Shown piece after piece: positions 33,125 to 52,803 of a stretch of DNA of 64,000 bases; position 1 is the first letter of the stretch; the number at the start of each line of letters is the position of its first letter. The stretch is from Candidatus Micrarchaeota archaeon (lineage in GTDB: Archaea; Micrarchaeota; Micrarchaeia; Anstonellales; Bilamarchaeaceae): contig JACRGD010000007.1 in NCBI GenBank assembly GCA_016212525.1, forward strand, positions 15,112 through 79,111, given 5' to 3'. The notes under the pieces are model-generated. The model saw only the letters and a list, made by a program, of their open reading frames with translations. It did no database searches and was not told where the DNA came from. The position numbers were made by a program, and so were the translations under genes.

Positions 33125-33159
33125 GGTGTGTCTGTGTTCAAATCACAGTCCCCCCAATC
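33125..33159 (+). repeat. 31-bp direct duplicate of the tRNA-Pro 3' end (T-arm plus acceptor), att-site-like
   Basis: TGTCTGTGTTCAAATCACAGTCCCCCCAATC occurs at the tRNA 3' end and again ~78 bp downstream; visible as SVFKSQSPQS twice in ORF 33050..33598. Confidence 0.8.
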
Positions 33160-33189
33160 ATATTTAAATCGACCGAGTCAAAATGAGAA

Positions 33190-33598
33190 CATGAATCAAA
33201 ATGATATGTTTAGACTCGTACCAGTCTACATGTACGGACTATTTTTTGGAATTGTAATTTTTCTCTCAATGAATGGCCCACTAGGAATCCCTGCATTTTC
33301 CTTTGAAAATATCATTAACCCATTCTTAGGAGAAAAGGGAAATATAGGAATTGCACTTTTTGCAGTTAGCATAATTGAGGTAGTGATATTAGACAAACTG
33401 TTTCTACCAGAGGCACTTAAAGATCAGAAGAAAGAGATGGTCGTCATAGGACTAGCTGAAATGCCAGGACTACTAGGTTTTGTGTTTTGCTTCTTAATTC
33501 GCAATCCGTGGCCATTTCTTGCGTTTGCAGTCATCGGACTTTGCAACTACGCATATGTGTTAATGAAACTCAGAAACGAGAGCCAAAGAACAGAATAG
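33190..33598 (+). CDS. small membrane protein (paralog 1 of a tandem pair)
   Basis: ORF 33050..33598 has an N-terminal extension that just translates the tRNA duplicate; likely start is MNQNDMFRL; 4 TM helices; C-terminal IRNPWPFLAFAVIGLCNYAYVLMKLR is shared with the next gene. Confidence 0.5.
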
Positions 33599-33610: not shown

Positions 33611-34054
33611 ATGAAAGATCCTTTTTTGAGGACCGTGCCTCTGATCTCATTCTTTTTAGTTACACTGCTTCTAATTCTGACATTTGCAACAAGCATCAGA
33701 ATCCCTGGATTGACAATGGAATCATTGAGTGAGCCATTCTCAAATAAGTACGAATTACTCAGAAACATTTTCCTAAGCATAACGATAATCGATTTTTTGG
33801 TACTAAACTTTATTTTTCTTCCCAAAGCACAAAACGAGATCAGATCGGCAAGTTTGGTAATTGGACTAATACAGATCGTACCAATCTGCGGATATATTTA
33901 CGCAGTTTTGATAAGAAATCCCTGGACATATGTACCATTTGCATTGGTGACATATCTAAACTATTTATACATACTAAGAAAAGTAAGAGTATCTGCACTT
34001 GGCAAACGAAGTTCTGAACTCAAATCTAGCATTGAATCCAAGAAAAACGATTAG
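33611..34054 (+). CDS. small membrane protein (paralog 2)
   Basis: 147 aa; C-terminal IRNPWTYVPFALVTYLNYLYILRKVR is homologous to the preceding gene. Confidence 0.5.
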   Translation: MKDPFLRTVPLISFFLVTLLLILTFATSIRIPGLTMESLSEPFSNKYELLRNIFLSITIIDFLVLNFIFLPKAQNEIRSASLVIGLIQIVPICGYIYAVLIRNPWTYVPFALVTYLNYLYILRKVRVSALGKRSSELKSSIESKKND

Positions 34055-34083: not shown

Positions 34084-35097
34084 TCATAAATCCGATTTTT
34101 GATCAAAAAGAAGTTCCGCAACGACCGCCCTGTGATCTGAAGTAGGAGTCGGATCAACTTCATATCTTGCAAATTGAACCCCTGGACCTGCAAGGAATAT
34201 GTAATCTAAAGTTCGATTTGGTGCTACTGCCGGATAGGTATGAAATCCATCAAGAAGATCAGGGTTTGCATTGGCAGTTAGGTCAAATGGTGGAATAAAT
34301 AGTTTTTGTTCGATGATGTGCTGCATTGCAGGATCATGAGTATAGTCATCAGGATCGCCAGATAAATGACTGGGAAATGCCATTAGTCTTGAGGAGCGGG
34401 GTATCGCATTAAAGTCGCCGGCAATAACCATTGGCATATCAAAGCGTCTTAAAGCGCTTCGCACCTTTGTATGTAGTTTTTGTATCTGCCAGCCCCTGCC
34501 AAACGTATTTCCCCGAAGTTCAGGACCAAGATAGCGGATGATTTGATAAAATATGTCACTTAGGAGATGGGTACTATATACCCCAAAATCAGGACCGTCA
34601 GGAGGAGAGACCATTACAAAGGTAAAACCTTTGCATTCATTGAGCAATTTGACAAGATAATTCACCGGGAGATGAGGAGAAAAGGATTGACCAAAATCAT
34701 AACTGGTGTGTTCAGAAAGCGGATATTTAGAGATTACAACAGTACCAAGATCTCGCCCAAGCACAGTGTTTGAAACAAACGATTTCAACACACCTGGAAG
34801 CGGACTTCTTAGATGCGAAGACCCATGATAAAAACTAAAACCCAGACGATGAACAAGATATTCAAGTTGATTTATTCCTGCAGTCCTAAGAGAGAAAAAA
34901 TCAACCTCCTGCAGACACACAACCACTGCGCCCGAGGCAATAATTCTCTCGGCAATAACATCCAGATTTCGAAAAACTTGTTTTTTTGTTATCGGTTGAC
35001 GCAATTCTCCAAAAGGCCCATGAGCAGTATTGATGTTTTGAGAATATAGAATCACTCTGCAGGGCTCTTTGGCAAGTGCCATAATAGATAAGTACAA
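34084..35097 (-). CDS. endonuclease/exonuclease/phosphatase (EEP) family protein
   Basis: 337 aa; VVCLQEVD and TSDHRAV catalytic motifs of the EEP fold. Confidence 0.7.
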   Translation of the reverse strand: MYLSIMALAKEPCRVILYSQNINTAHGPFGELRQPITKKQVFRNLDVIAERIIASGAVVVCLQEVDFFSLRTAGINQLEYLVHRLGFSFYHGSSHLRSPLPGVLKSFVSNTVLGRDLGTVVISKYPLSEHTSYDFGQSFSPHLPVNYLVKLLNECKGFTFVMVSPPDGPDFGVYSTHLLSDIFYQIIRYLGPELRGNTFGRGWQIQKLHTKVRSALRRFDMPMVIAGDFNAIPRSSRLMAFPSHLSGDPDDYTHDPAMQHIIEQKLFIPPFDLTANANPDLLDGFHTYPAVAPNRTLDYIFLAGPGVQFARYEVDPTPTSDHRAVVAELLFDQKSDL

Positions 35098-35130
35098 AGA
35101 AGCTATAAAAGAAACGCAAAGTTACAAAGA

Positions 35131-35150
35131 TATTTATAGTGGGAAAGACA
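35131..35150 (+). promoter_or_regulatory. promoter-like 20-mer TATTTATAGTGGGAAAGACA (TATA box plus downstream element), copy 1, upstream of the hisD cluster
   Basis: TTTATA archaeal TATA consensus; 19/20 identical to a second copy at 42510, 70-95 bp upstream of hisF. Confidence 0.45.
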
Positions 35151-35292
35151 CAGACATTGTGTTAGTTAATGATTAGGTGAAAATAATGGTGAACAAAAGA
35201 GGTATGGAAAGGGGTTTACTTCACCCCGATAAAGGAAAAGGATTTACTTCATCCGTCTGGATGCCAAAGCAAGACTAGTTTTACCGCTGTCA

Positions 35293-35484
35293 GTGCGGGA
35301 TCGATTAAACATCAAACCCAAAGACCAAATTTTACTTAGCGTTAGCAGTTTTTCGGATTCGGGGGATAAACAAACAATTACTTTAGTATTAGCGAAAGCC
35401 CCGGAAGATTTCCAGACTGAATCATATTCGTATTCGCGCAACGGGCGAGTTGTAGGAAAAAAATTTCGAGGTGGATTTGAATGA
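35293..35484 (+). CDS. small AbrB/MazE-like (swapped-hairpin) protein translationally coupled to hisD
   Basis: 63-aa GTG-start ORF; N-terminus RDRLNIKPKDQILL resembles the AbrB-type LxIKPGDxL motif; its stop overlaps the hisD start codon. Confidence 0.3.
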   Translation: MRDRLNIKPKDQILLSVSSFSDSGDKQTITLVLAKAPEDFQTESYSYSRNGRVVGKKFRGGFE

Positions 35485-36839
35485 CTATTTTGAAAGTTCA
35501 GAGGTTAATTGATGCTGATTTATCTAAATTATTGGATCGCGGGACAACTAAGACAAATGTTATGCAGACAGTTCAATCGGTTTTTGAAGCGATTAAACTA
35601 CGTGGATTAACTGCAGCATTAGAATTTACAAAGCAGTTTGATGGAGTTACATTTAAATTTGCAAGTGAACTTTGCGTTTCAGATGCTTCGATAAAAGAGG
35701 CATATTCAAAATTGTCTAAAGAGCAAATAAGTGCAATTAAAGATTCGATAACCCGGGTTCGGGCATTTTGCATTGCTCAACTTCAAAATGTTCAAAACAC
35801 AAAACTCAAAACTGCAGAAGGTATCACTGAGCTTCGATGGCTTCCAATAGAGAGAGTCGGAATATATGCGCCAGCTGGCCGAGCTCCGCTTCCATCTTCA
35901 GTAATAATGGGTGCAATTACAGCTAAAGTTGCCGGAGTACGAAAACTGATCTTATGCGCTCCACCTCAAAAAGATGGGACTATAAATCCTGCAATTCTTG
36001 TTGCAGCTAATGAATGTGGAATAACTGAAATTTATAAAATTGGAGGAGCTCAAGCGATAGCTGCGATGACTTATGGATTATCAGCATCGAACATCGAGTT
36101 TCCGGCAGTGGATATGATTTGCGGGCCGGGAAACGCTTATGTTGCATACGCAAAGCAATACGCCGCATCTGAGGGGAGAGTAAAAATTGATACTATTGCA
36201 GGTCCGTCTGAAGTCTTAATTTTAGCAGATAAAACTGCAAACCCAAAACTCGTTGCAGCCGACATGCTTGCTCAAGCAGAGCACGGACCAACTTCGGCTG
36301 CAATATGCGTTTCGTGTTCAGAGAGTTTTTCCCAAAGTTTGGCAATCGAATTAGATCGCCAGCTTAACGCTTTTGGAGAAGGAGAAAAACAGGAACCCAT
36401 GCGAACTTCACTTAGAAATTGGGGTGCAATTTTGGTTGCTGAATCATTAGATCAGGCAATCGATTTTGTGAATGATTTTGCATCCGAGCACGTCGAACTT
36501 TATCTTGAAAATGCTGATAAAGTAGCCAATCGAATTACCTTTGCCGGAGCAATCTTTATAGGAACTGGAGAAGTCTTTGGCGATTATGGTATGGCTGGAG
36601 GAAATCACATTCTTCCAACTGGCAGATCTGCAAGATTTGCCTCTCCAGTTAGCGTGTATTCATTCCTGCGACAGCAACAAATCGAAAAGATGAATACCGA
36701 TGCACAAGCGCAACTTGCAGAAGCAACTGCTGATTTTGCCAGGGTTGAAACACTTGAAGCACATGCGCGCTCGGCTGAGGTTAGGGCTAGTGAATCTAAC
36801 ATTGCAAAAAATAATAATAATACAAAAGAGGAGGAGTAA
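35481..36839 (+). CDS. hisD: histidinol dehydrogenase
   Basis: 452 aa with HisD zinc/NAD-binding motifs (QAEHGP, GPGNAYV). Confidence 0.95.
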   Translation: MTILKVQRLIDADLSKLLDRGTTKTNVMQTVQSVFEAIKLRGLTAALEFTKQFDGVTFKFASELCVSDASIKEAYSKLSKEQISAIKDSITRVRAFCIAQLQNVQNTKLKTAEGITELRWLPIERVGIYAPAGRAPLPSSVIMGAITAKVAGVRKLILCAPPQKDGTINPAILVAANECGITEIYKIGGAQAIAAMTYGLSASNIEFPAVDMICGPGNAYVAYAKQYAASEGRVKIDTIAGPSEVLILADKTANPKLVAADMLAQAEHGPTSAAICVSCSESFSQSLAIELDRQLNAFGEGEKQEPMRTSLRNWGAILVAESLDQAIDFVNDFASEHVELYLENADKVANRITFAGAIFIGTGEVFGDYGMAGGNHILPTGRSARFASPVSVYSFLRQQQIEKMNTDAQAQLAEATADFARVETLEAHARSAEVRASESNIAKNNNNTKEEE

Positions 36840-36840
36840 A

Positions 36841-37893
36841 ATGACTGAAATTGATGTTTTAGTTCGAGATAGTATTAAACAAATAAAGGAATATTCAAGG
36901 CCGCCAATACTAGATACCGGAATAAAACTGAATCAAAATGAATCGCCTTATGGCTTACCTTTAGAAGTAGTTAGGGAATTTGAGAAAAGACTTGCAAAAC
37001 TTGCCTTCAATAGATATCCTGAAGGTTCATCTGAAAAACTACGAATTAAAATCGCAAGAAAATTCAAAACAAATCCAGATCAAATAGTAGTAGGTTGTGG
37101 AATCGATGAGATTCTTTATTATCTTTTGATGGCCTTTGTTGAAAAGGGAGACAAACTAGTAAGGCCGGTTCCAAGTTTTGGGATGTATCCAATTTGCGCT
37201 CAGGTTAGTGCTGCAAAAGATGTTCCAGTTCAACTTAGTGATAAATTTGATTTGACTGAAGAATTTGTAACCCAGAGCAAAGATGCCAAAATGACAATTA
37301 TTTGCAGTCCAAACAATCCAACCGGAAATTGTATGAATAAGAAACTAATTGAACGAATAATTCAGGGGACTTTGGGTTTAGTTGTAATAGATGAAGCATA
37401 TGCAGATTTTGCAGAATCAGATTGCATGGATTTTCTTAAATACGACAATGTGATTTTACTAAGGACTTTTTCTAAAGCAGGTTCATTTGCTTCCGGAAGA
37501 CTAGGATTTTCTGTTTCCAGTAAGAAAATTGCCGATTATATTAACCGAGTCAGACTTCCCTGGAACGTTAGTGCCATGGTTCAGGAACTAGGTGAATTGA
37601 TTTTGGATTATGAACCTCTTTTCCTTGAAAAAATTGAACAAATTAAAAAAGACCGGAATGTTTTGCTTTCAGAATTGAAAAAGATCGTAAAGACATATCC
37701 AACTGATTGTAATTTCTTTCTTTTTGAAGTGAAAGACCCTAAAAAAGTTTTTGAAAAACTGATTTCAGAAGGAGTTCTTACCCGAAATATAAGTGGAAAT
37801 TCTCCAAGACTAAAAAACTGCCTTAGAGTCTGTGTTGGAACCAGAGAAGAAAACGAAAAATTCCTTCGCGCACTTAAGAGGTGTTTGGAATGA
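36841..37893 (+). CDS. hisC: histidinol-phosphate aminotransferase
   Basis: ORF 36700..37893 starts inside hisD; the real ATG at 36841 lies 2 nt after the hisD stop; class II aminotransferase with PLP-lysine region TFSKAGS. Confidence 0.9.
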   Translation: MTEIDVLVRDSIKQIKEYSRPPILDTGIKLNQNESPYGLPLEVVREFEKRLAKLAFNRYPEGSSEKLRIKIARKFKTNPDQIVVGCGIDEILYYLLMAFVEKGDKLVRPVPSFGMYPICAQVSAAKDVPVQLSDKFDLTEEFVTQSKDAKMTIICSPNNPTGNCMNKKLIERIIQGTLGLVVIDEAYADFAESDCMDFLKYDNVILLRTFSKAGSFASGRLGFSVSSKKIADYINRVRLPWNVSAMVQELGELILDYEPLFLEKIEQIKKDRNVLLSELKKIVKTYPTDCNFFLFEVKDPKKVFEKLISEGVLTRNISGNSPRLKNCLRVCVGTREENEKFLRALKRCLE

Positions 37894-38543
37894 AATTTGA
37901 TGCAATAATTTTTGATGTGGATGGAGTTTTAATTGATGTAAGTCAGTCGTACCGGATTGCAATAATCAGAACGGTCAAACAATTTAGTGGCAAGCAAATC
38001 AGCAATGCTGATATTGATTTGCTTAAGCAAACCCCTGGTTTCAATAATGACTGGGATGCGTCATTTGCACTAAACAAAGAAATAACTGACCCAAAACAGG
38101 TTGACCGTACTTCTGATGAATACAAAAAAATGAAGGACTATTTTCAAAGTCAATATTTAGGCGAACTTATCTTTAAAGAAAAATCCCTAATTGATTTAAA
38201 AACTCTTGAACTTCTTAGTTCAAAAGGTCTGAAAATGGGGGTTGCAACCAGCAGGCCAAGAGAGGAAGCTTTCATTGCGTTAAGAACTGCCGGAATCAGT
38301 CCAAAATACATCTTAGAAAGAAATGTTGTTGCACAGGAAGATGCGCCAGAAAAACCTTCTCCAGAACCACTTCTTTTAGCAAAGAAAAAAATCAATGCAA
38401 CAAATCCTGTTTATGTTGGGGATACTTCCAGTGACAAACTGGCAGCAGAGCGGGCAAAAATGCCCTTTATTTATTGTAAGAAAAATCCCCAGATTGAGCT
38501 GATGGAAATTGAGAATGTGAATCAATTAATTGATGTGATTTAA
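37881..38543 (+). CDS. HAD-family hydrolase, putative histidinol-phosphatase
   Basis: 220 aa; HAD motif I FDVDGVL; sits between hisC and hisB and no other HolPase is present in the operon. Confidence 0.6.
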   Translation: MFGMKFDAIIFDVDGVLIDVSQSYRIAIIRTVKQFSGKQISNADIDLLKQTPGFNNDWDASFALNKEITDPKQVDRTSDEYKKMKDYFQSQYLGELIFKEKSLIDLKTLELLSSKGLKMGVATSRPREEAFIALRTAGISPKYILERNVVAQEDAPEKPSPEPLLLAKKKINATNPVYVGDTSSDKLAAERAKMPFIYCKKNPQIELMEIENVNQLIDVI

Positions 38544-39203
38544 ATGGTAAATCGAACTGCAAAAATAACCCGGAAAACAAAGGAAACAGAAATAGAAGTC
38601 GAACTTAATTTAGATGGAAGCGGGAAAAGCGACATTAAAATCGGAGTTGGTTTTCTTGAGCACATGCTAACCTTATTTGCCGCACGAGGGATGTTTGACC
38701 TAAAAGTTTTCGCAAATGGCGATTTAGATGTCGATGATCACCACACAATCGAGGACATAGGAATCTGTATCGGTCAGGCATTTTCAGAGGCAATAGGAGA
38801 CAAGCGAGGCATACGCAGGTACGGGTTTTGGATTCTTCCGATGGACGAAACGCTTGCAACTATTGCACTTGATCTTAGCGGACGCAGTGCTTTGGTTTGG
38901 AACGTCCAGTTCGAACGCGAGAAAATTGGCGATATGAGTACAGAAATGCTCTATGACTTTTTCGACGCATTTTCACGTAATGCCCAGGTAAATTTACACA
39001 TGAAAATCGAGTATGGAAGAAACGAGCACCACAGAGCCGAAGCCCTCTTTAAGGGGTGGGGAATGGCAATGCGCATGGCTTGCGAGATTGATCCACGACA
39101 GATTGGAATTCCAAGCACAAAGGGAATTCTTAGCGAAAGTACCGACACAGCTAAGTCGAAAGTAGAGGTGAAAAACTATGATACGTTTAGCAATTCCAAA
39201 TAA
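38544..39203 (+). CDS. hisB: imidazoleglycerol-phosphate dehydratase
   Basis: 219 aa; DDHHTIEDIGI and EHHRAEALFK metal-binding motifs. Confidence 0.95.
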   Translation: MVNRTAKITRKTKETEIEVELNLDGSGKSDIKIGVGFLEHMLTLFAARGMFDLKVFANGDLDVDDHHTIEDIGICIGQAFSEAIGDKRGIRRYGFWILPMDETLATIALDLSGRSALVWNVQFEREKIGDMSTEMLYDFFDAFSRNAQVNLHMKIEYGRNEHHRAEALFKGWGMAMRMACEIDPRQIGIPSTKGILSESTDTAKSKVEVKNYDTFSNSK

Positions 39204-40062
39204 AGGCCGCATTTCAACTGAAGTTTTGCGGCTTCTATCAAAAATCGGGCTTGAAGTCCCGGAAAACGGAAGAAAGCTTTATGCAAATACAAACAATCCT
39301 AACATTCAGATTGTTTATGCGCGTGCAGCAGATATTCCGTTTTTTGTCTCTGCAGGAGTAGCGGATGCCGGGATTACTGGAGAAGATATGATTTTGGAAA
39401 GCTCGGAGGAAGTAAGTGAAGAAAATGCAAAAAAATCGATAACGAAGTTACTACGATTGAATTTTGGAAAATGCAAAATCGTTGTCGCAGCGCCAAATAA
39501 TTCGAAGATAAATTCAACACAAGATTATCCAGCTAAAGTTCGGGTTGCAACCAAACTTACAAACATAACTTCGAGGTATTTTAGATCAAAGAAAATCAAT
39601 GCAAAAATCATCAGACTCTCAGGTGCAACTGAACTAGCCCCAGCACTTGGTATTGCTGATTTAATTGTAGATCAGGTTAGTACGGGAACAACTTTGGCAG
39701 CAAATAATCTAAAAATTGTCGATGAAATTTTCGAATCTGAGATCTATCTGTTTGCAAATAGCCGGTCTTTGAAAGAAAAAACCGAAGATCTGGATTCACT
39801 GAAGACCTCATTTGAAAGTGTAATTACTGCCGAATCCAAACGATATATCATGGTGAATGCTGATGGCGAAGATACTTTAGCACGAGTTACTGCCGTGATG
39901 CCTGCATTAGACAGTCCAACCATTCTTAAACTTGCAAAAGTCGGGTCTTATGCAGTTCACAGCGTCGTCGATGCCAATGAACTAATCGGCACCATTTGCA
40001 AGATAAAAAAGGCAGGCGGAACTGGAATTTTGGTCATGAACGCATCGCGCGTAGTCGAATGA
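39178..40062 (+). CDS. hisG: ATP phosphoribosyltransferase (long form)
   Basis: 294 aa with C-terminal regulatory domain. Confidence 0.9.
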   Translation: MIRLAIPNKGRISTEVLRLLSKIGLEVPENGRKLYANTNNPNIQIVYARAADIPFFVSAGVADAGITGEDMILESSEEVSEENAKKSITKLLRLNFGKCKIVVAAPNNSKINSTQDYPAKVRVATKLTNITSRYFRSKKINAKIIRLSGATELAPALGIADLIVDQVSTGTTLAANNLKIVDEIFESEIYLFANSRSLKEKTEDLDSLKTSFESVITAESKRYIMVNADGEDTLARVTAVMPALDSPTILKLAKVGSYAVHSVVDANELIGTICKIKKAGGTGILVMNASRVVE

Positions 40063-40075
40063 TGAGGCTAAACCT

Positions 40076-40723
40076 ATGACTCAGATTACCATCATTGATT
40101 ATGGCGCAGGAAATGCAGTAAATGTGCAAAATGCCCTGCAAAAACTGGGTGCCAATTGCAAGATTAGCGCAAGCGAAACTGACTGGTTAAATGCAGATGG
40201 CATTATTTTTCCAGGAGTCGGTGCCTTTGGCCCGGCCATGCAAAATTTAGGGAAGCGTAGCCAAATTCTCAGAAGAATCATTAACGAATCTGATCGCCCG
40301 TTTCTTGGCATATGCCTTGGAATGCAACTTCTCCTTGAAAAAAGTGAGGAAAGCCCAAGTACAGAAGGCCTGGGGGTTTTGGAAGGGTCGGTTTTGCGTT
40401 TTGAATCCAATGCTTTGGGTTCTGAAACTAAATCTCTTCCAGTTCCACAAATTGCATGGAATGAGGTTAATGTAGTTAGTAACTCGGGTAAATGTTCTCC
40501 GCTTTTTGATGGTCTTGCAGATAGATTCTACGCGTATTTTGTTCACTCATATTACTGCAAAGTTAGTGATCGTTCATTAGTTGCTGCTACGGCTAAATAT
40601 GGAATTGAATTCGATTCTTCAATCTGGAAAAAGAATCTTTTTGCAACTCAGTTTCACCCTGAAAAAAGCGGAAACGATGGGTTAACGATATTGCAAAATT
40701 TCCTAGATGAGGTGAAATGCTAA
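40076..40723 (+). CDS. hisH: imidazole glycerol phosphate synthase glutaminase subunit
   Basis: 215 aa; class I GATase catalytic triad (GICLGMQ). Confidence 0.9.
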   Translation: MTQITIIDYGAGNAVNVQNALQKLGANCKISASETDWLNADGIIFPGVGAFGPAMQNLGKRSQILRRIINESDRPFLGICLGMQLLLEKSEESPSTEGLGVLEGSVLRFESNALGSETKSLPVPQIAWNEVNVVSNSGKCSPLFDGLADRFYAYFVHSYYCKVSDRSLVAATAKYGIEFDSSIWKKNLFATQFHPEKSGNDGLTILQNFLDEVKC

Positions 40724-41434
40724 ATGGTTATTGATAAATTTCAGGTTATTCCGGCAATCGACTTGATGGGTGGTCAATGCGTTCGATTGGTCAAGGGTGA
40801 AAAACAGAATAAAATCGAGTATGCGATTTCACCGTATGAAATGGCTAAGAGCTATCTTGAATATGGTGCAAAACTCATCCACATAGTTGATTTAGATGGC
40901 GCATTTACTGGTCAGATGACCAACCTTCCAATTATTTCAAAACTCGCAAGCGAATATCCAATCCAGGTCGGAGGTGGAATACGCAATGAAGAGCGAATTA
41001 GAGAATTGCTTTTGCTTGGAGTGAAAAGAGTAGTTGTGAGTTCGCTTCTACTAAAAAATCAGGAATTGGCAACTGAACTAAAAACCAAATACAAAGGAAA
41101 GCTCGTTGGCTCATTTGATTTTAAAAATGGCAGATTAGCTTATGCAGGTTGGACAAAAGAAAGTGAACTCAAATTTAACGAGGTCGTTGCAGGTTTAGAT
41201 GAAATTGTTGTGACTGACACCAATAAAGATGGAACGTTTGAAGGACCCAATCTCGAATTGCTTTCATCGCTTCGGGCGAGCTACCCGAACATCAAAATCA
41301 TCTCAGCTGGAGGAGTCAAAGATGAATCTGATCTTGCTGCCTTAGAAGGAATCGGAATTGATGGGGTTATCATAGGCAGAGGATTTTTCGAGAAGATGAT
41401 AAAACTGTCTGTTCTTGGAGGGTGTAAAAGATGA
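40724..41434 (+). CDS. hisA: ProFAR isomerase
   Basis: 236 aa (beta/alpha)8 barrel; VIPAIDL and VGGGIR motifs. Confidence 0.9.
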   Translation: MVIDKFQVIPAIDLMGGQCVRLVKGEKQNKIEYAISPYEMAKSYLEYGAKLIHIVDLDGAFTGQMTNLPIISKLASEYPIQVGGGIRNEERIRELLLLGVKRVVVSSLLLKNQELATELKTKYKGKLVGSFDFKNGRLAYAGWTKESELKFNEVVAGLDEIVVTDTNKDGTFEGPNLELLSSLRASYPNIKIISAGGVKDESDLAALEGIGIDGVIIGRGFFEKMIKLSVLGGCKR

Positions 41435-41640
41435 CATGTTTGAATCGGATATCGATTCAAGAAAAGAGAGGGTAGAAGTTTAGTATCGAATACGGCAGCC
41501 AAAAATAGCAACGAAAACTGGTTAAATATCTGATTGAATTGGAATTAATTTTGACGCAAGGCCGTAAGTTGCACGAAGTATTTAAGCATCTGACACCAAC
41601 TGAACAAGCTATGCTTGAATTTCAAGCCAGGAATATTCTT

Positions 41641-42306
41641 TTATCTTGAAAATGGACTAATCGCATTCAATTGCCTTACAGCCAGCTCAAGATTGCCCGC
41701 TCCAAGTGCTGCTTGCGCGTTTGCAAAATGAGGTGAGCTTGCTATTGCAGATGCGGATACGTGATGGGTCCTAACTAAAAACGACTCACATAATTCACGT
41801 CGGTATTCTTCAGTATACCGCTCAGGATGTGCTAAAACACGTCTAGCTTCTGCATAAGCCATTTGGAAATAGAATCCATCAGCACCAGTTTCTCGTATGG
41901 GTTGAGGTATAGCTTGCTCAGGACTCGTGCTAAATGGTTGCTCCCTAAGGCGCGGTAATGCCGCATCTAGCCTAGATAAAATTGTCGTAAGCATTCGCCA
42001 AGCAGTTTGAACAGAACAATTCTCTGGTGGGGTTGGAGGCAGTCGCAATTGGGAGAGAGCAGTTAATTCTGCTGGACTCATTTGATCTCTATGATTATAC
42101 AAAATATCTCCAACCCTTCCCCTGGCTTCATTTATTGCATTTAATAAATCGTCTCGGACGTGAGGTGTGTTTGGTAGATTATATTTATATCGTTCGTATA
42201 TTTGTCTGGCAAAATTATACTTAACCATGACCTCTGCAGGCAAAAGCATTCGTTCCGAAGGCTGAAGCCTTGTGCTGTGCTCCTGAATTATTTGGAATAG
42301 AAACAT
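41641..42306 (-). CDS. hypothetical protein, compositionally foreign, antisense insertion inside the his operon
   Basis: 221 aa; Arg/Ala/Leu/Pro-rich and Lys-poor; about 47% GC against ~39% locally; opposite strand to the hisA and hisF genes flanking it. Confidence 0.55.
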   Translation of the reverse strand: MFLFQIIQEHSTRLQPSERMLLPAEVMVKYNFARQIYERYKYNLPNTPHVRDDLLNAINEARGRVGDILYNHRDQMSPAELTALSQLRLPPTPPENCSVQTAWRMLTTILSRLDAALPRLREQPFSTSPEQAIPQPIRETGADGFYFQMAYAEARRVLAHPERYTEEYRRELCESFLVRTHHVSASAIASSPHFANAQAALGAGNLELAVRQLNAISPFSR

Positions 42307-42509
42307 GTCACCATTTATCGGTCATAGTTTAAATCATTTTGGCTCAAAAAAATAAATGACTTTTAACTACTGCATAAGTGCGTATCGCTTTGAGTAGGAA
42401 AGTTTCGCGTAGTTCCTAATATCAAGGAAGATCAAAAATGTATCGAGTGCTTAAAGTTGGAAATCGTGAAACCCGACACTCAGCTTAAGTTCTCTTCCGG
42501 TCACAAATT

Positions 42510-42529
42510 TATTTATAGTGGGAAAGATA
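42510..42529 (+). promoter_or_regulatory. promoter-like 20-mer TATTTATAGTGGGAAAGATA, copy 2, upstream of hisF
   Basis: 19/20 identical to 35131..35150; TATA box ~70-95 bp upstream of the first conserved hisF codon. Confidence 0.45.
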
Positions 42530-42605
42530 ACTAATTATGTTAAGGTTGTAAAAATGGAAAAGGATATACTTCACAAAAATTAGGACTTCTAAATCGCCAC
42601 TTTGT

Positions 42606-43358
42606 AAACGGATTATTCCCTGTCTTGATGTCAAAAACGGTCGGGTAGTTAAAGGCACTAATTTTGTTGGTCTTAAAGATGCCGGAGATCCGATCGAACT
42701 TGCAAGGAAATATTACGAAGACGGGGCAGACGAGCTGGTTTTTCTTGATATTACTGCTAGTAGTGAAGGTCGAAACACGGTAGTTGAACTAGCTAAAGCA
42801 GTTGCGCAGGAAGTCTTCATTCCGTTTACTATCGGTGGGGGCATTCGAACTATCAAAGATATTGAAGCGCTACTTAAGGCAGGAGCAGATAAAGTTTCCA
42901 TCAATACGGCCGCAATAGTTAATCCCAAACTGCTAACAGATGCGGCTTGTGAATTCGGAAATCAGGCCATCGTCATTGCAATCGATGCCAAACAAAACGA
43001 ATCAGGGAGTTGGAATGTTTACAAAATGGGCGGGTGCATTGACACTAACTTTAATGCCATGGAATGGGCAAAAAAGGCAGTTTCTCTAGGAGCCGGAGAA
43101 GTTCTTCTAACAAGCATGGATAGAGATGGAACTCAAAGTGGATTCGACATCGAGCTAACTCGTGCGATTGTTAAGGCTGTGAACGTTCCAGTTATTGCGT
43201 CAGGCGGTGGCGGAAAAGTCGATGACTTCATTAATGTTTTTCAAAAAACAAACGTTTCGGCAGCACTTGCAGCCGGAATTTTCCACTATGGAAAAATAAC
43301 AATTGGTGGCCTAAAAAAAGAATTAAAATTAGCGGGAGTTGATATTCGTGAAATCTGA
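42606..43358 (+). CDS. hisF: imidazole glycerol phosphate synthase cyclase subunit (start codon unresolved)
   Basis: in-frame translation from ~42597 gives [17 protein letters not shown]...AIDAKQ...SGGGGK, full-length HisF; the ORF track only reports the C-terminal 110 aa (43026..43358) because there is no in-frame ATG/GTG/TTG between the upstream stop (42549) and 43026. Confidence 0.8.
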
Positions 43359-43989
43359 AAACAATAATTTTGACAAAGACATTCAAAAGGATAAAAGTAG
43401 GGTCGATCAAATCAAGTTCGATAACGATGGATTAGTTCCAATTATAGTTCAGGATGCAAATACAGGAGTAGTGCTCTCACTCGTCTATGCCAATTCGGAT
43501 GCAGTCTGCCGGATGCAGGAAACTGGTTTTGTCTGGCGCTATAGTCGCTCGAAGAAAAAAATAATGCAAAAAGGAGAAGAAAGCGGGAACGTTCAGAGGA
43601 TCGTTTCAATCGATTTAGACTGTGACAAAGATGCTCTGCTAGTTCGAGTATTACCTGAAGGACCTGCATGCCACCTGAGTACGGTTTCATGTTTTGGATC
43701 TGAAGAGGTAGCAGATATGCTTTCTGAACTTGCACTCATAATAAAAGACCGAAGACAAAATCAAGACTCAAATCAAAATTCATACACCGCAAAGGTAGTT
43801 TCAAATCGGGAGCTCGCAATCGAAAAGCTACGTGAAGAATGCGAGGAATTGATCGAAGCTAAAGAAAAGAAGGATCTGATCTGGGAGGCGGCTGATCTTC
43901 TCTACTTTACGCTAGTTTATTTTGAGAATCGCGAGGTTGAATTTGGGGATGTCTTGAAGGAACTAAGACGAAGACGTCTAAGTCACTAA
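43339..43989 (+). CDS. hisIE: bifunctional PR-AMP cyclohydrolase / PR-ATP pyrophosphohydrolase
   Basis: 216 aa; HisI N-terminal half (LVPIIVQD...C..C) fused to HisE C-terminal half (EExEL...AADLLYF). Confidence 0.9.
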
Positions 43990-44080: not shown

Positions 44081-44839
44081 TTATCGCTCGAGTAGTTGAT
44101 CAATTGTCGCCCGCATTGTCCCGATCGGCTGTGCTCCGATAATTGGAACGACATCCCTGCCATCTCTGCGGGCAATAAAGAAATAGGGAGTCCCATCGAC
44201 TCCGATCGATTTGCCGTAATTAATATCGGACTGGATCTTAGATATCCCATCTTCTGAGTTAATACAGATGTCAAAGACACTCCGATTTAGACCTATTTCG
44301 CTCGCCCAAACCTTAAAGTCATTGACAGTTATCGGATAGGTACTAAGGCCCAATTGAGCCTGCTTATCGTAAATGATATTATGCATCTGCCATTGCTTGC
44401 CCTGCAACTTTGCACATTCAACAGCCTGAGCGGCACCCATTGCACCTGGATGAATATTAGTATAGGGGAAATTACGATAGACCAGTTCTAGTTTACCTTT
44501 GTTGACATAATCAGCAGTTAAATTTGGCAGAACCAAAGTCGTGAATCTTCGACAAAAGGGGCATTGATAATCGGAGAACTCAACCAGAACCACAGGAGCA
44601 GATGCATTACCCATACGCATGTCTCCCCTGATAAGCTCGCTGACGTTTATATTTGGACCAAATTGAGAAATCGGAACAACTCCCACAGCAGAGGGATTAG
44701 GAGAAGAATTTAGATTAGAAAGTGATGAGTTTGGATTTGTAGGCGAGATATTCTTTGAGCCTGAATTTTGAGAAACACAACCAAATCCAATTATGAAAAC
44801 CAATAACACCGCCAGAACAATGACCTTTTTCATAAACAA
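44081..44839 (-). CDS. DsbA/thioredoxin-fold thiol:disulfide oxidoreductase with N-terminal membrane anchor
   Basis: 252 aa; N-terminal TM helix; CPFC active-site motif (SDYQCPFCRRF). Confidence 0.7.
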   Translation of the reverse strand: MFMKKVIVLAVLLVFIIGFGCVSQNSGSKNISPTNPNSSLSNLNSSPNPSAVGVVPISQFGPNINVSELIRGDMRMGNASAPVVLVEFSDYQCPFCRRFTTLVLPNLTADYVNKGKLELVYRNFPYTNIHPGAMGAAQAVECAKLQGKQWQMHNIIYDKQAQLGLSTYPITVNDFKVWASEIGLNRSVFDICINSEDGISKIQSDINYGKSIGVDGTPYFFIARRDGRDVVPIIGAQPIGTMRATIDQLLER

Positions 44840-44899: not shown

Positions 44900-46177
44900 C
44901 TAAAATTCAGAAAGAACCCATTTCCAGATTGGAACATAACGGATTTTTCTCTGTGCCAACACTTTTTCCTCCTCGTGATCGAGAGTTAATATAAGTCCTT
45001 CTTCCAGATCATTTGCCTTAAGAGTCTTAAATAAACCACCTTCTTCTCGTGTTCTTGTTTCGATATCAGTCAGTTCAAGGCAAACCTGGATAGCTAGTTC
45101 AATTTTCGGACTGTTTTGAGCCACAACCACAAAATCAGTTTCCGTTCCGTCTGAGTTTACATAGTAGTAAAATTTTTTGCCTCTTCGGAAAAGTTCTATG
45201 GCGACAAAATTTTCGAGCAGAACACCAAGAGGTTGAACTGCAGTATCACTATATCGGAGGACAAGACCATTATCAATACAGTATAGTTTCTTTGGATTTT
45301 TGTCAAATAACTTAGCCTTTTTCTCATATTTATTTACCTGAAATAAAAGATAAGTATCCTGTAGATAATTAAGATATTTTTGAATGGTTTTTTCGCTCTT
45401 AATTGCAAAATTTTTTGAAACACCTGAATAGGTGATCTTACGTGCAGTATTGCGTATGAGGAATTTGATCACAGTTAGAAGTTCATCTGGTTTTCTTATC
45501 TGATACCGCTTTATTATGTCTTTTTGTACAATATCACCTAGGAGCTGAGCCAACAGATCAGGATTGGTATACTTAAGAACATCTGGAAAGCCTCCAGAGA
45601 GCAAATATTCCTTAAAGGCTTCCAAAAGAGCCACCCGTGAAGAGGTACTTATATGATCGGACTGATTGAAATTGGGTTTTTTGAGTGACAAAAATTCCCT
45701 AAAGGAGAAGGGAAATAGTTCGAAATCCACGTGTCTTCCAGTTAAATGAGTACCCAGTTCAACACTAAGAAGATCGGCATTAGAACCAGTAATGAGGATT
45801 AAGTTGTTTGAACGAAGAAGACGATTTATGAATAATTCCCAGCCCGAAATATTCTGTATTTCATCAAAAAGATAAGAAGTCGTATTTTCTCCATTCTCAA
45901 GTAAAAATGCCTCCATGAGCAGCTGGAAATCATCCACACTAAAATTAGCGATCCGGTCATCATCAAAATTTAGATAATTAAGATTGACGATTTTTCTAAG
46001 GAGCTGCTTAGCAAAGGTACTTTTACCAGAACGCCTAACACCCTTGATTATAATTGCTGTTCCGCCAACATTTAGAGAAACAGAATCTCTTAGATCGCGA
46101 TCGATTTCTCCAACACCAGTCACCAGTTCTTTCTTCTGTTCTCTAATGACCCGAATGAGAATTTCTTTATTGATCAT
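44900..46177 (-). CDS. AAA+ ATPase of the COG1373/DUF4143 family
   Basis: 425 aa; Walker A GVRRSGKST; C-terminal DUF4143-like domain. Confidence 0.7.
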   Translation of the reverse strand: MINKEILIRVIREQKKELVTGVGEIDRDLRDSVSLNVGGTAIIIKGVRRSGKSTFAKQLLRKIVNLNYLNFDDDRIANFSVDDFQLLMEAFLLENGENTTSYLFDEIQNISGWELFINRLLRSNNLILITGSNADLLSVELGTHLTGRHVDFELFPFSFREFLSLKKPNFNQSDHISTSSRVALLEAFKEYLLSGGFPDVLKYTNPDLLAQLLGDIVQKDIIKRYQIRKPDELLTVIKFLIRNTARKITYSGVSKNFAIKSEKTIQKYLNYLQDTYLLFQVNKYEKKAKLFDKNPKKLYCIDNGLVLRYSDTAVQPLGVLLENFVAIELFRRGKKFYYYVNSDGTETDFVVVAQNSPKIELAIQVCLELTDIETRTREEGGLFKTLKANDLEEGLILTLDHEEEKVLAQRKIRYVPIWKWVLSEF

Positions 46178-46309: not shown

Positions 46310-47539
46310 TTAGTTCACTTTCAAAAACAGGACAGAATCCAAAACAGTTTGTATGTCTTTTGCATTCTGACCAATCTGGATAAGGGTCGTCTGACCGCGG
46401 ATTCCTTTGCCGCTGGGTTTAGTTGCAATAAGACCTAAAACCTCCAATTCAGAGAGATATTCCTTATACCATCTAAGACTCCTTGCACGCTTTCCGACCT
46501 TATTACAGACGCGCTCATACTCTTCATAGGCCTCACCGGAAAACAGATAGCAAGGAGCAGAATAACCATTTTGCTCGGAATTGTTTTCTAATGACAAGCG
46601 TGAGTATTTGCTGCCCTTAACTGCCAGAGAAGCTATCGAATAGAGCGTGAGTTGATGCATCTCGGGAAGAGTAACGATCGTCTCTTTTGTAAGATCTATT
46701 TCGACGCGTTTGCGTGCAGATTCGACATCTCGGTCAGTTATCTTGTTTCGTTTTTCAAAATCGGCAATCTCACCGGCTTTGTTTATGAGTTTTAGGGCAT
46801 ATCGGGCATCACCAGTCTCCTGGGAGGTAATGGCCGCGGCCAGATTTATTGCCGAGGAATCAACAGATTCTGGGGCAAATCCTTCTTTTGATCGCTCAGA
46901 TAAGATGCGCTGAATTTGCTCTGCTGTGTAAGGTGGAAATACCATCTCCGTTTCATAGAGACTGCTCTTGCTTCGGGGGTCAAGAGTATCTTTGAAAGAG
47001 AGTTTGTTTGAAATACCAACAATACTTACTCCACCATAGCTCAGTTCATCGTTCGATCGGGTAAGAGTGTAGACGAGTTCGTCCAGATCCTTTATCATAT
47101 CGATCTCATCTAGGACGATAATCATCTGCTTGCCATCGGAAACGAGTTCGAGAAGTTTTTCATAAAAGAAAGGAAGGCCAAAACCGGATTTATCGGCTTC
47201 TGGGCAGTAATTCTTGAGTATTTTCTGGAGAATCCGATATCGGGAATTGTAAATCCTGCAGTTGACATACTGAATTAGCGCCTTTGTATCGCCCGAGCCT
47301 TTGGTGGAATTTTCAAAATCCTCCATTATGCGCTTCATGCAGCAGGTTTTTCCAGTTCCGGTTTTACCATAAAGTATGATATTTCTTGGTTTTTGTGATC
47401 TTAGGGCGGGTGAAAGAACTGAAACGATCTGGTTGATCTGATGGTCCCTAAAGGGCAAATCTTTTGGAACATAATGAGGCGAGAGAACACTCGGATTTCT
47501 AAAAATAGTTCGTTTGGACATCACATCCTCAAATAACAT
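46310..47539 (-). CDS. cdc6: Orc1/Cdc6 replication initiator
   Basis: 409 aa; Walker A GKTGTGKT, Walker B DEID, C-terminal winged helix. Confidence 0.9.
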   Translation of the reverse strand: MLFEDVMSKRTIFRNPSVLSPHYVPKDLPFRDHQINQIVSVLSPALRSQKPRNIILYGKTGTGKTCCMKRIMEDFENSTKGSGDTKALIQYVNCRIYNSRYRILQKILKNYCPEADKSGFGLPFFYEKLLELVSDGKQMIIVLDEIDMIKDLDELVYTLTRSNDELSYGGVSIVGISNKLSFKDTLDPRSKSSLYETEMVFPPYTAEQIQRILSERSKEGFAPESVDSSAINLAAAITSQETGDARYALKLINKAGEIADFEKRNKITDRDVESARKRVEIDLTKETIVTLPEMHQLTLYSIASLAVKGSKYSRLSLENNSEQNGYSAPCYLFSGEAYEEYERVCNKVGKRARSLRWYKEYLSELEVLGLIATKPSGKGIRGQTTLIQIGQNAKDIQTVLDSVLFLKVN

Positions 47540-50302: not shown

Positions 50303-52801
50303 CTATTGATTGGACTCGACAAAGATAGTTGGAGTGTATCCTGTGCCAGTCTGTCTTGGAGAACGTGGTCTTCGTGCTCCTGCATCAGAAGGTACTGGGG
50401 CAGGAACTGCCGCCACTGGAACAACTACAGGAGCTGGAACCACTACCGGAGGCGCAACAACTGCAGGAACTGTGGTATCAGCAGGAACTGAAGAATCTAC
50501 TTGTACCGATGCATCTGCGCTTGGCAAAGGTGCACCTATTGGAGCGCCCAAGGGAACAGATCTACGCGGAGCAGATTCAACAACTGCCGGAGTTGGATGT
50601 GTTTGCGGAGTTCTTGTAGATTTCCACCAAATACCGAAAACACCACCGCCAAGTATTCCAACAACCACAGCAGCTACCCAGGCTTTAAAGGTTCTTGGTC
50701 TGGATGGCAACGCGGATGGATCAACCTCGACAGTGCTTTCTGGATCGACTATAGGGTCGGCGGGAGCTGATGGTGAGAAATCAGCCCTCAAAGTAGTCCC
50801 GTCTCGTGGGCTAGGTCTTTGGGCAACCGGTTCCGAACCAGTATTAGATGTGCCACGAACAGCTCTCGAGGGAGCACCTACAGCAAAGACCTCATCATCC
50901 CAAGGACCAGCCTTAGGGGATGCACGAGTTGTGGGTGGACTAACCGGAGCGTGCGGACCGCTCACGGATGCAGGACCCGGAAGAACACCACCTGGACCGC
51001 GTCTAGTTGCAGTATCTGATGCAACAGGAATCGGAGCAGGAGCCCTTGCTGGAGGCTCAGAACCAAAGGCACCACCCATCATCAGCGTACCACTTGGTGA
51101 TGGAGGTTCACGAAGCACTGGAACAGCTGCCTCATTTGAATTGAAAAGATTTAACCTTAGAAGTCTTCCAGGACCCACTAAAACCTGACCAGATAGTTTA
51201 TCAGTAACGTTAAACATATCCGAACGTCCGGTAATATAGTTCAAATGGAAGGGAGTTGAATCATGCCCATAAGTAACTACGTCAGAATCAGTGGCTATCA
51301 CAACCCGAGCACCAGTAGAATCAGAAAGCACATAGGGAACATTTGGAGCAATATCAGCCATGGATTTAGTTGCATTGACTACTTGCGCACCCCTAAGAAA
51401 TTCGATATTTGAACCCTCATCTGAGTTAGTAACTCGAACCACATCAGAACCAACTTTGGCATATTTAGTTTCGCCAATTTCGACCTTCAAAAAAGCATCG
51501 ACCCTGCCTCCAGAGAAAACAACAAACTCATTAGAACCATACCTAACCAGATTGAGACTAGCAGAAAGAGCAACTACAGTATTGGTATCTTCTAATTTGC
51601 ATTCATAAACAGAAGGACAACCTGATTTCTCTGCTACTTCTTCCAAATTTAGAAGACGAACTGAAACCTTATCAGGAAGACGTCGTGAAACCTCAACTGC
51701 ATAATCGTTACCCATCAAAGATAGTTTTGCATATCGAACTTCTTGGAAGTCAATGGATACCAACTGGTCAGGAGAGCCTAAAGCACAGACCTGAACTTCA
51801 TGGGCATTTGAGAAATAAACGTTCAAAGCAGGACCAAAATTCCTAGATTCACCAACAACCAAATCAGATTTGTTTGGCCGCTCAACTAGACAGTATGAAC
51901 CCTGCGAATCAACATATTCAGAAGTATAGACAACCCCTCTTAAAAGAGCCAAACCAGCTACATCATATTGAACAGAACCGCCGGGAGTGTCTGAAACATC
52001 AAAGTGATGGTCGCCACTACCAGTATAGACCAAATCAACATATCCCGAAGGAGATGCTGCCCTACCATCGCGTACAGGAGTTACCGTAGATGCAGTAGGT
52101 AAAGCAGGAGGAAGTTCATTTTCTGTCCAGACCGAATAATAACGAGTACCGGAGTTTTCCCATCCCAAAACATACGCATCAACACCTGCAGCCATGGCCG
52201 GAGGAACATAGGAAGCAAGTTTAGCTTCAAATACGGCCGGATGATCAGGAACAGAAGCAAGGAAATCCCCGTCTAATTCAGTTATAGTCACATCAGACCC
52301 AGAAGTATCAACATAGATACCCAAAGGCAATCGAACTCCATTTGTATATATGTTAGAGTCAGGAACAATTTCGGCCGGACCGTATCGATGAACAGTTCGA
52401 GTAACATCGACACTAAGTTCACCATTCTTAACAGTAAGCGTGGCATCAAAACCAGTATTACCATGACGAACAAGAATAGACGCTGAATCATTATTAGAGT
52501 TAACATCAAGTTCGGTTCTTGGAATTAGATCATCTAGATTCTTCAGGTAAAAAGGTACATAATTATTGGCAGAATCACGAAGTTCTACAGATCCGACTCC
52601 AGATGAAGTGACATTAGAACAAACAAGCTTCAAATCACCCGGCAAAGTACAGTATTCTTTTACTTCCAAGGATTTGCGAGTTGTTTCTGGACCAGCTGCA
52701 CGAGCAGCAGCAGCTAGAGGCGGAGGCAATGCCACATTACCACCAGTAACATGCGCTGGAACTTCAGAAGCAATTCTTGCACCTATTAATTTTTTTGCCA
52801 T
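50303..52801 (-). CDS. large membrane-anchored protein (single C-terminal TM helix, Pro/Val/Ala-rich tail)
   Basis: 832 aa; TM helix WVAAVVVGILGGGVFGIWW near the C-terminus followed by PAVVAPPVVVPAPVVVP repeats; no known domain. Confidence 0.6.
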   Translation of the reverse strand: MAKKLIGARIASEVPAHVTGGNVALPPPLAAAARAAGPETTRKSLEVKEYCTLPGDLKLVCSNVTSSGVGSVELRDSANNYVPFYLKNLDDLIPRTELDVNSNNDSASILVRHGNTGFDATLTVKNGELSVDVTRTVHRYGPAEIVPDSNIYTNGVRLPLGIYVDTSGSDVTITELDGDFLASVPDHPAVFEAKLASYVPPAMAAGVDAYVLGWENSGTRYYSVWTENELPPALPTASTVTPVRDGRAASPSGYVDLVYTGSGDHHFDVSDTPGGSVQYDVAGLALLRGVVYTSEYVDSQGSYCLVERPNKSDLVVGESRNFGPALNVYFSNAHEVQVCALGSPDQLVSIDFQEVRYAKLSLMGNDYAVEVSRRLPDKVSVRLLNLEEVAEKSGCPSVYECKLEDTNTVVALSASLNLVRYGSNEFVVFSGGRVDAFLKVEIGETKYAKVGSDVVRVTNSDEGSNIEFLRGAQVVNATKSMADIAPNVPYVLSDSTGARVVIATDSDVVTYGHDSTPFHLNYITGRSDMFNVTDKLSGQVLVGPGRLLRLNLFNSNEAAVPVLREPPSPSGTLMMGGAFGSEPPARAPAPIPVASDTATRRGPGGVLPGPASVSGPHAPVSPPTTRASPKAGPWDDEVFAVGAPSRAVRGTSNTGSEPVAQRPSPRDGTTLRADFSPSAPADPIVDPESTVEVDPSALPSRPRTFKAWVAAVVVGILGGGVFGIWWKSTRTPQTHPTPAVVESAPRRSVPLGAPIGAPLPSADASVQVDSSVPADTTVPAVVAPPVVVPAPVVVPVAAVPAPVPSDAGARRPRSPRQTGTGYTPTIFVESNQ

Positions 52802-52803
52802 AG

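Follow-up and report, generated by a model that had tools for sequence, protein, structure and literature searches.

A duplicated leader precedes a startless hisF and suggests +1 frameshifting at Leu-His codons in Micrarchaeota-type archaea

Introduction

How is HisF made in an archaeon whose hisF gene has lost its start codon to an insertion? The question is raised by the histidine biosynthesis (his) genes in a stretch of 64,000 nucleotides (nt) from a Candidatus Micrarchaeota archaeon (assembly GCA_016212525.1, contig JACRGD010000007.1, positions 15,112 to 79,111 of the forward strand), which we call the window and whose own coordinates are used throughout. Known modes of control of amino-acid operons include attenuation, T-boxes, repressors and riboswitches. 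A sequence-only reading of the window had proposed a transcriptional solution, in which a foreign antisense gene was inserted between hisA and hisF and a duplicated promoter element restored expression of hisF and hisIE. Here we document the insertion, the duplication and the missing start of hisF, together with the conservation and the frame rules of the his leader in relatives. Since hisF has no start of its own and its new leader supplies the only AUG out of frame, the key question moves from transcription to translation. We infer, with confidence somewhat above even, a hungry-codon programmed +1 frameshift at CUU-CAY that senses charged tRNA-His; the slip as well as its dependence on histidine is read from the sequence features described below.

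Results

A lineage-specific insert separates hisA from hisF

As judged from open reading frame (ORF) and Pfam calls, a first transcription unit (35481..41434, plus strand) runs from hisD (35481-36839, plus strand) through hisC, a HAD phosphatase gene, hisB, hisG and hisH to hisA (40724-41434, plus strand). The conserved part of HisF begins only at ~42600-42606 and ends at 43358, and hisIE (43339-43989, plus strand), which overlaps the hisF stop, belongs with it to a second unit. In between, a 1.17-kb segment with an orphan minus-strand gene (41435..42599) sits exactly at the hisA/hisF junction, with the hisF ATG removed; the interruption was thus found as the sequence-only reading had described it, with the same coordinates and ORF. 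Comparison with relatives, gathered via HisA homologs and exact-protein look-ups, showed that the segment is absent and that hisA and hisF overlap or lie at most 61 nt apart in 10 of the 10 relatives examined (HisA 55-66% identical), so the interruption in the window is lineage-specific. Among the HisA matches (50-67% identity) are sequences from other Micrarchaeota and from Ca. Bilamarchaeum. A scan of genome contigs with a HisF query returned only bacteria (~60% identity), and in a metagenome scan with a HisD query L088 was the sole relative among the matches listed.

Both edges of the insert can be placed against the ancestral arrangement. On the left, an ATGA overlap at the hisA stop (41431-41434) is a probable remnant of the ancestral hisF start. 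On the right, the ancestral HisF start M[LWT]CKRIIP is replaced by SPLCKRIIP; the closest relative, L082, reads ATG ACG CTT TGT AAA where the window reads TCG CCA CTT TGT AAA, which places the loss of the ancestral ATG at the right-hand insert border, ~42599. Directly after the hisA stop, at the left insert edge, lies a perfect 8-bp hairpin, TTGAATCG-GATAT-CGATTCAA (41440-41460), without a T-run. We reject an assembly or indel error as the cause: a Logan assembly made independently from the same sample agrees at 100% identity across 19,177 bp that include both leaders and the insert, and the architecture recurs in relatives.

The insert holds one ORF, on the minus strand (41641..42306), with a TATA-like TTTAAA ~30 nt upstream of its ATG and a predicted product of 221 amino acids (aa) that is all-helical, Lys-poor and Arg-rich. 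The protein matched only itself, in an entry labelled Candidatus Micrarchaeota, among 5.8e9 proteins in a word-indexed search and among 1.84e9 cluster representatives in an exhaustive phmmer search, and it matched no Pfam, PHROG or PADLOC family. Its AlphaFold2 single-sequence model is helical (predicted local distance difference test, pLDDT, 65) and found no fold match in the PDB (best Foldseek E = 0.85). A kinship with Abi or toxin families, which the sequence-only reading had suggested looking for, did not emerge: PADLOC reported 0 families, and there were neither homologs nor fold matches. The statement that the ORF is GC-richer (~47%) was exaggerated, as its GC content is a host-like 43.6% compared with 41.2 +/- 3.2% for 56 window ORFs (z = 0.74), 46.7% is reached in one local interval of 300 nt only, and GC at third codon positions (GC3) is below average at 30%. 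Its description as Arg/Ala/Leu-rich and unlike host proteins applies to Arg, together with the lowest Lys content of the 56 ORFs (0.9%; R/(K+R) 0.92, z = 3.5), but not to Leu, which is ordinary.

Neither a transposase nor an integrase was found in the insert. The best terminal inverted repeat (17 nt at 88%) is close to chance level, and when the borders were searched for a target-site duplication or att-like repeats, flank similarity was no better than in shuffles (230/500). Given these results, the host-like GC and GC3 and the lack of homologs, the claim that the ORF is foreign is unproven; probably the ORF is, or until recently was, a real gene whose origin was mobile or de novo.

Related loci carry other irregularities in this region. 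In L169 the hisA-hisF spacer measures 61 nt (8705-8767), HisF has a 17-aa N-terminal extension, and a Bro-N gene (10151-11011) stands between hisIE and hisS; AbiEii genes are located close to the his operon in L082 and L169. Taken together, the L169 spacer, the Bro-N insertion and the AbiEii genes make the his locus of this clade seem insertion-prone.

A compacted copy of the his leader precedes hisF

The hisD-cluster promoter (35121..35150, plus strand), source of the duplicated element, contains a TATA box, TTTATA (35133-35138), followed by AGTGGGAA (35138-35145). In agreement with the sequence-only reading, the 20-mer TATTTATAGTGGGAAAGATA at 42510-42529 matches 35131-35150 at 19/20 positions. 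No other match with three or fewer mismatches occurs in the 64 kb, and two matches occurred in 0/100 shuffles. The similarity extends far beyond the 20-mer: 42500-42574 aligns to 35121-35224 with 65/73 identical positions and three deletions, scoring 58 compared with a shuffle maximum of 33.5 (0/1000 shuffles). Hence a ~75-nt compacted copy of the operon 5' leader (42500..42574, plus strand) now precedes hisF, comprising TATA (42512-42517), AGTGGGAA (42517-42524), a Shine-Dalgarno (SD)-like AAGGTTG (42542-42548) and the ATG (42554) of an upstream ORF (uORF). The proposed promoter duplication is correct in that the hisD-cluster element was copied in front of hisF, but the copy is the whole leader with its uORF and not a 20-mer promoter.

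Within the window, AGTGGGAA occurs only twice, each time at a his promoter, and the box was found at the his promoter of nine relatives. The conservation of TATA and AGTGGGAA at his promoters of relatives, together with their copy in front of hisF, fits the suggested split of one operon into two co-regulated transcription units, a suggestion that overlooked the missing start of hisF. The 13-mer GGNTNTACTTCAY has three copies in the window (35212, 35240 and 42562; 0.1 expected); outside it, this 13-mer was found upstream of hisD in relatives only, and ~160 unrelated his loci gave no match. In viral contigs the 14-mer AGGGATTTACTTCAY had 89 scattered matches, judged to be due to chance, whose contexts were not inspected.

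hisF lacks a canonical start codon

The hisF frame is open from 42552, directly after a stop at 42549-51, and contains no ATG, GTG or TTG before 43026 (codon ~158); therefore gene callers and annotation pipelines report only the last 110 aa of HisF. The frame itself is intact over 261 codons and matches PF00977 (His_biosynth) end to end at 277 bits. The sole AUG-initiated frame upstream of hisF is the uORF of the copied leader (42554..42583, plus strand), which encodes MEKDILHKN* and is in the -1 frame relative to hisF. It contains a candidate +1 shift site (42557..42575, plus strand) composed of GAAAAGGA, TATA, CTT (42569-42571), CAC (42572-42574) and A. A +1 slip from CTT to TTC at this CTT-CAC makes ACA (42573) the next codon and enters the hisF frame, which from there spans 42573..43358 (plus strand).

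The hisD leader holds two candidate sites in tandem

The leader of the hisD cluster has a uORF (35175..35278, plus strand) with SD AGGTGA (35175-35180), ATG at 35186 and the 0-frame product MVNKRGMERGLLHPDKGKGFTSSVWMPKQD*. Candidate +1 shift site 1 (35207..35225, plus strand) consists of the G-rich tract GAAAGGGG, TTTA, CTT (35219-35221), CAC (35222-35224) and C. Site 2 (35235..35253, plus strand) follows 28 nt (3n+1) later with GAAAAGGA, TTTA, CTT (35247-35249), CAT (35250-35252) and C. The twice-shifted frame is that of a small AbrB/MazE-like ORF (IRLDAKARLVLPLSVRDRLNIKPKDQ...; 35251..35484, plus strand), the stop of which overlaps the hisD ATG (ATGA, 35481-35484). This ORF has no ATG, GTG or TTG before 35293, and its conserved N-terminal strand IRLDAKARLVLP lies upstream of that position. 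With AbrB/MazE (SpoVT-AbrB) regulators it shares the motif LDxKxRLVLPxxxR and a weak PF04014 match (16.4 bits, E = 0.009); it differs from them in that the match stays below the 24.7 cut-off, in being embedded in a his leader without a canonical start, and in having no toxin partner. A 69%-identical homolog is labelled as a PrlF-type regulator/antitoxin by JGI, and paralogous regulators in relatives carry PF04014.

Site 1 is enclosed by a GGGGU...ACCCC stem (35211-35227; 5 bp, 7-nt loop with the CUU) that was not seen at other sites or in relatives. Slippage by -1 on the heptamer G GGT TTA of this site was dismissed, since the other sites do not conserve this sequence.

Conservation and frame rules of the leader in relatives

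A uORF with such a site stands before hisD in 11 relatives. We compared 12 leaders with 17 sites as DNA, namely the two of the window and those of L084, L087, L088, L168-L171 and L173-L175; two further leaders were deduced from proteins. All 12 have a uORF with a GGTGA-type SD 5-8 nt before an ATG that is in frame with CTT-CAY, and within the uORF a G-rich SD-like tract (AGGGG, AAGGA, TGGGA or AGGTGG) lies 3-5 nt before the CTT of every site. The P-site codon is CTT in 17/17 sites, CTT accounting for only 32% of Leu codons here, and the +1 codon is always TTC, so that a tRNA-Leu with the assumed anticodon GAG could re-pair by G.U, A-U and G-C. The codon before CTT varies (TTA, ATA, GTA, GTT, GTC, CTG, TGT); in the GC-rich L088, which reads CTG CTT CAC, this preceding Leu codon has drifted to CTG while CTT was kept. 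The A-site codon is always His (10 CAC, 7 CAT). Changes at its wobble position are synonymous in the uORF frame and switch Thr and Ile in the +1 frame, and the two +1-frame wobble Cs are invariant, a pattern that points to selection on the reading Leu(CUU)-His and not on the overlapping frame. Conservation of the 0 frame ends at His, and the uORF stop codons, 2-36 codons downstream, are at unrelated positions.

Past the site, the +1 frame is fused in frame to hisF in the window and to hisD in L171, L174, L175 and L088. The stop of the shifted-frame ORF overlaps the hisD start in the window, L084, L087, L168, L170 and L173, and is positioned 11 nt before hisD in L169. The full combination of a short 0-frame ORF that has a start with a long +1 ORF that has none is present in four cases: hisF and the AbrB-like ORF of the window, L087 and L171.

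Five leaders are two-site leaders with the sites 19 or 28 nt apart (3n+1), so that a ribosome meets Leu-His at site 2 only if it has already shifted by +1 once, and needs the second shift to arrive in the gene frame. Counted from the uORF ATG to the end of the last His codon, these five measure 67, 46, 46, 40 and 46 nt, all 1 mod 3, and the one-site leaders 48, 21, 39, 39, 39, 42 and 21 nt, all 0 mod 3. The frame rule, by which one-site leaders need +1 and two-site leaders +2, therefore holds in 12/12 leaders. L173 aligns with the two-site leaders, but its first site has decayed (CC TTT GCG) and a 2-nt insertion returns the remaining site to frame. Just past the site, L174 and L175 differ by four synonymous third-position changes of the +1 frame, one of which creates a 0-frame stop; upstream of the site the third-position periodicity of this pair is uninformative, because the uORF peptide is not conserved there.

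In P0125, an 88-aa protein from a JGI/ENA contig of 2.1 kb, the uORF (MMVKKGGAGRGLLH...) is fused in frame to the AbrB domain, which implies a 1-nt indel after site 2; the sequence is consistent either with a natural fused variant or with an error, and supports a trans-frame product only indirectly. For P0123 and P0125 a distance of 28 nt between the sites is deduced. For other AbrB-like homologs gene callers pick inconsistent starts. In-frame CTT-CAY occurs 4 times in window genes compared with 8.5 expected, numbers too small for significance. No tRNA-Leu or tRNA-His gene and no anti-SD sequence is present in the window. The leaders fold no better than shuffles (z-scores -0.1 to +1.4) and contain neither a terminator-like site nor a run of His codons, each site having one. 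Rfam scans returned only a chance Histone3 match inside hisC (34900-43100, E <= 1) and tRNAs (whole window, gathering thresholds).

Proposed mechanism

We propose that the uORF senses charged tRNA-His. With ample His-tRNA, the ribosome would read Leu-His and terminate after a few more codons. Under a shortage of His-tRNA it would wait on CAY with an empty A site, the P-site tRNA-Leu would slip +1 from CUU to UUC with the re-pairing given above, and translation would go on in the +1 frame. That frame would yield an enzyme directly, HisF in the window or HisD in L171, L174, L175 and L088; alternatively, it would run through the AbrB-like ORF to a stop over the hisD start and act by translational coupling. 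Two-site leaders would require two successive slips, and the tandem arrangement would sharpen the response. In the window, HisF would be made only by frameshifting, with the N-terminus MEKDIL joined to the hisF frame: the insertion destroyed both the hisA-hisF coupling and the hisF start, and the leader copy would have restored transcription as well as His-responsive translation of hisF-hisIE. The AGTGGGAA box is probably an operator for AbrB-type his regulators that adds transcriptional control.

In nine relatives hisS follows hisIE on the same strand (L168 10044-11267; L169 11023-12264; L170 10073-11320; L171 10023-11252; L172 6880-8109; L173 10039-11265; L174 10073-11302; L175 10132-11361; L082 4571-5875) and the leader would thus control it as well. 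The window has other genes after hisIE, which encode a convergent DsbA-like thioredoxin (44081-44839) and an AAA_14/DUF4143 ATPase (44900-46177). An AbrB/MazE protein with a C-terminal ACT-like domain is encoded directly upstream of the his operon in L087 (2055-2522), L171 (2313-2702), L174 (2440-2829) and L175 (2402-2788), the L175 protein having weak PF04014 and PF01842 matches. The his promoters of these relatives carry two tandem GTGGGAA boxes ~20-30 nt downstream of TATA. Protein and boxes are probably a histidine-binding repressor and its operator.

Alternative explanations

The main rival to the frameshift is direct, non-canonical initiation in the final frame, at AUA 42564 or AUU 42579 for hisF and at AUU 35242 or a CUG for the AbrB-like ORF, the uORF being an ordinary and possibly His-sensing leader peptide. 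We consider this unlikely, but several observations favor it or weigh against frameshifting. Seven of the 12 leaders have a canonical final-frame start at or upstream of the site from which direct initiation would be possible. L169, L170 and L173 share GGATGTxCTTCA, read as GG ATG T(T/A/C)C TTC A, with a final-frame ATG, used by gene callers, in the exact place of the window's ATT/ATA. An in-frame ATG upstream of the site is found 7 nt after the uORF ATG in L174 and L088 and 20 nt before it in L175; L084 has in-frame GTGs, and L168 a GTG immediately after the site. The leaders are moreover phylogenetically related and counts of 12/12 overstate their independence, which may amount to 5-9 independent events, and each uORF ATG was picked partly for being in frame, which does not apply to the SD spacing. 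Compared with bacterial leaders, one His codon per site makes a weak sensor, and since window hisD has a strong SD and an ATG of its own, it need not depend on translational coupling.

Direct initiation nevertheless meets several difficulties. Its candidate starts directly adjoin the G-rich tract and so have no spaced SD, and in the systems known initiation at AUA or AUU is very poor. Start positions are not conserved even between the close relatives L174 and L175. It leaves unexplained why CTT and two wobble Cs of the +1 frame never change when the supposed second codon switches between Thr and Ile, and equally the 3n+1 tandem spacing and the 2-nt compensation in L173. Finally, a His-stalled ribosome would cover these starts, which gives the wrong regulatory sign.

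It is improbable that hisF is broken, that is, that its start was lost to the insertion, that the gene is unexpressed or decaying and that the leader-like sequence restores nothing. The lack of a canonical start and the 110-aa fragment called by pipelines would agree with such decay, and Micrarchaeota-type DPANN archaea are often host-dependent. However, the 261-codon frame is intact with PF00977 end to end, as are hisH, hisA and hisIE, from the leader copy a single +1 slip at the conserved site leads precisely into hisF, and four relatives without the insertion have the same fused layout for hisD.

A similarly low probability attaches to control at the level of transcription only, the model of the sequence-only reading, according to which the leader motifs, including GGATTTACTTCA, are operators for AbrB-type regulators, the uORF and Leu-His have no translational role and the duplication merely provided a co-regulated promoter. 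Conservation and duplication of the TATA and AGTGGGAA element agree with this, as do the AbrB(MazE)-ACT genes adjoining the his operon in L087, L171, L174 and L175 and the AbrB-like ORF in the window leader. Yet it leaves hisF without any start codon and accounts neither for codon-like substitutions (synonymous His wobble) nor for an in-frame SD and ATG that are found in 12/12 leaders and kept through indels. Operator and frameshift site are compatible, and probably both operate.

Classical attenuation or riboswitch-like RNA control (a his terminator/antiterminator or T-box-like sensing of tRNA-His) is very improbable: the His codon in a translated his-operon leader resembles bacterial hisL, and hisS shares the operon in relatives as it does in T-box regulons, but the only Rfam match at E <= 1 is the spurious histone stem-loop, the leaders fold like shuffles with one His codon per site in place of a run, and hisF would still be without a start codon.

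Other features of the his loci and the window

In the window, hisC and the HAD-type phosphatase gene are separate, overlapping ORFs (36700-38543), as in L084, whereas most relatives encode one fused protein of 561-572 aa. Beside the his operon of L084, an MCM helicase gene (10094-13537) contains an intein with a LAGLIDADG domain, according to Pfam matches. An Orc1/Cdc6-type gene (46310-47539, minus strand; AAA_16, Cdc6_lid and WHD_Cdc6 Pfam matches of L081) is located 2.3 kb from the his cluster of the window, and a replication origin may lie nearby.

Two tRNA genes (15031-15154 and 17453-17587, minus strand) have introns of ~52 nt; Rfam detected them, whereas ARAGORN did so only with its intron option, calling both tRNA-Thr(CGU), which may be unreliable. 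Adjacent paralogous genes (33050-33598 and 33611-34054) encode small membrane proteins with the common C-terminal motif (L/F)IRNPW...LxxYxYxLxK(L/V)R. Five very large ORFs (455-1379 aa; 50303-63030, minus strand) have Ala-rich, Lys-poor products and a composition distinct from the rest of the window, their GC3 of 0.22-0.36 being unusually low for a GC content of ~0.45.

Discussion

CUU is the most efficient +1 shift codon known, as in release factor 2 (RF2; CUU_U) and in Ty1 (CUU_AGG_C, ~40%), and slow decoding in the A site as well as an SD-like tract upstream promote the shift (PMC5009743). RF2 (prfB), with AGGGGG-UAU-CUU-UGA-C, resembles the his leader as proposed here in its short 0-frame ORF, the +1 slip of tRNA-Leu at a P-site CUU, the slow A-site codon that reports the regulated quantity, the G-rich SD-like tract a few nt upstream and the startless long +1 ORF (PMC5009743). 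The RF2 A-site codon, however, is a stop and senses the release factor, whereas the his leader has a sense His codon there that would sense charged tRNA-His; on the hungry-codon literature, this codon would be expected to turn slow when His is limiting. RF2 is furthermore bacterial with a strict 3-nt spacer, while the his leader is archaeal, allows 3-5 nt, can have tandem sites and controls a biosynthetic operon.

Departure of tRNA-Leu from CUU while the A site awaits a scarce aminoacyl-tRNA, as proposed for the his leader, is also seen in Ty1 and ABP140 (CUU_AGG_C) and in Gallant's hungry-codon shifts (PMC5009743). In Ty1 the tRNA is constitutively rare and the shift sets a ratio without nutrient sensing, unlike our proposal, and the E. 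coli hungry-codon shifts were seen in laboratory constructs. Bacterial hisL attenuation likewise uses a translated leader before the his operon whose His codons report His-tRNA charging. hisL combines consecutive His codons with alternative terminator and antiterminator hairpins, whereas each site here has one His codon and the leader no significant RNA structure; the output of hisL is transcription read-through, that of the his leader would be a change of reading frame. Recoding efficiency serves as a metabolic sensor in the antizyme +1 frameshift, which senses polyamines, and the nearest analogue that would sense tRNA availability is the candidate UUA-dependent bypassing of a Streptomyces phage (PMC10732093). 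Signals, sensed molecules and domains of life differ between these two and the his leader, and neither controls an amino-acid biosynthetic operon.

For starvation-specific trans-frame products of hungry-codon shifting, the 2016 recoding review states that 'no examples are known' (PMC5009743), and a 2021 review on archaea names a single cellular gene with a -1 event, besides -1 events in some archaeal viruses. Our literature search found no report of a his-leader frameshift system of this kind.

We see about an even chance that Micrarchaeota-type archaea control histidine biosynthesis, and in relatives also hisS, by a +1 slip at CUU-CAY upon tRNA-His starvation, once or twice in tandem, into the reading frame of an enzyme or that of a coupled AbrB-like regulator. 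Such a module would be portable, duplicated in the window and now the sole route to translation of hisF. As gene callers truncate or miss such genes (HisF as 110 aa), histidine biosynthesis may be wrongly scored as incomplete in these organisms. A natural regulator that turns tRNA charging into a choice of reading frame had been anticipated and, according to the 2016 review, never found. If true, the his leader would be the first physiological use of hungry-codon frameshifting and the first cellular +1 programmed frameshift in archaea, a compact and portable sensor of ~40 nt whose specificity could be changed by exchange of the A-site codon. It would also give one of the few insights into how uncultured DPANN archaea regulate their genes.

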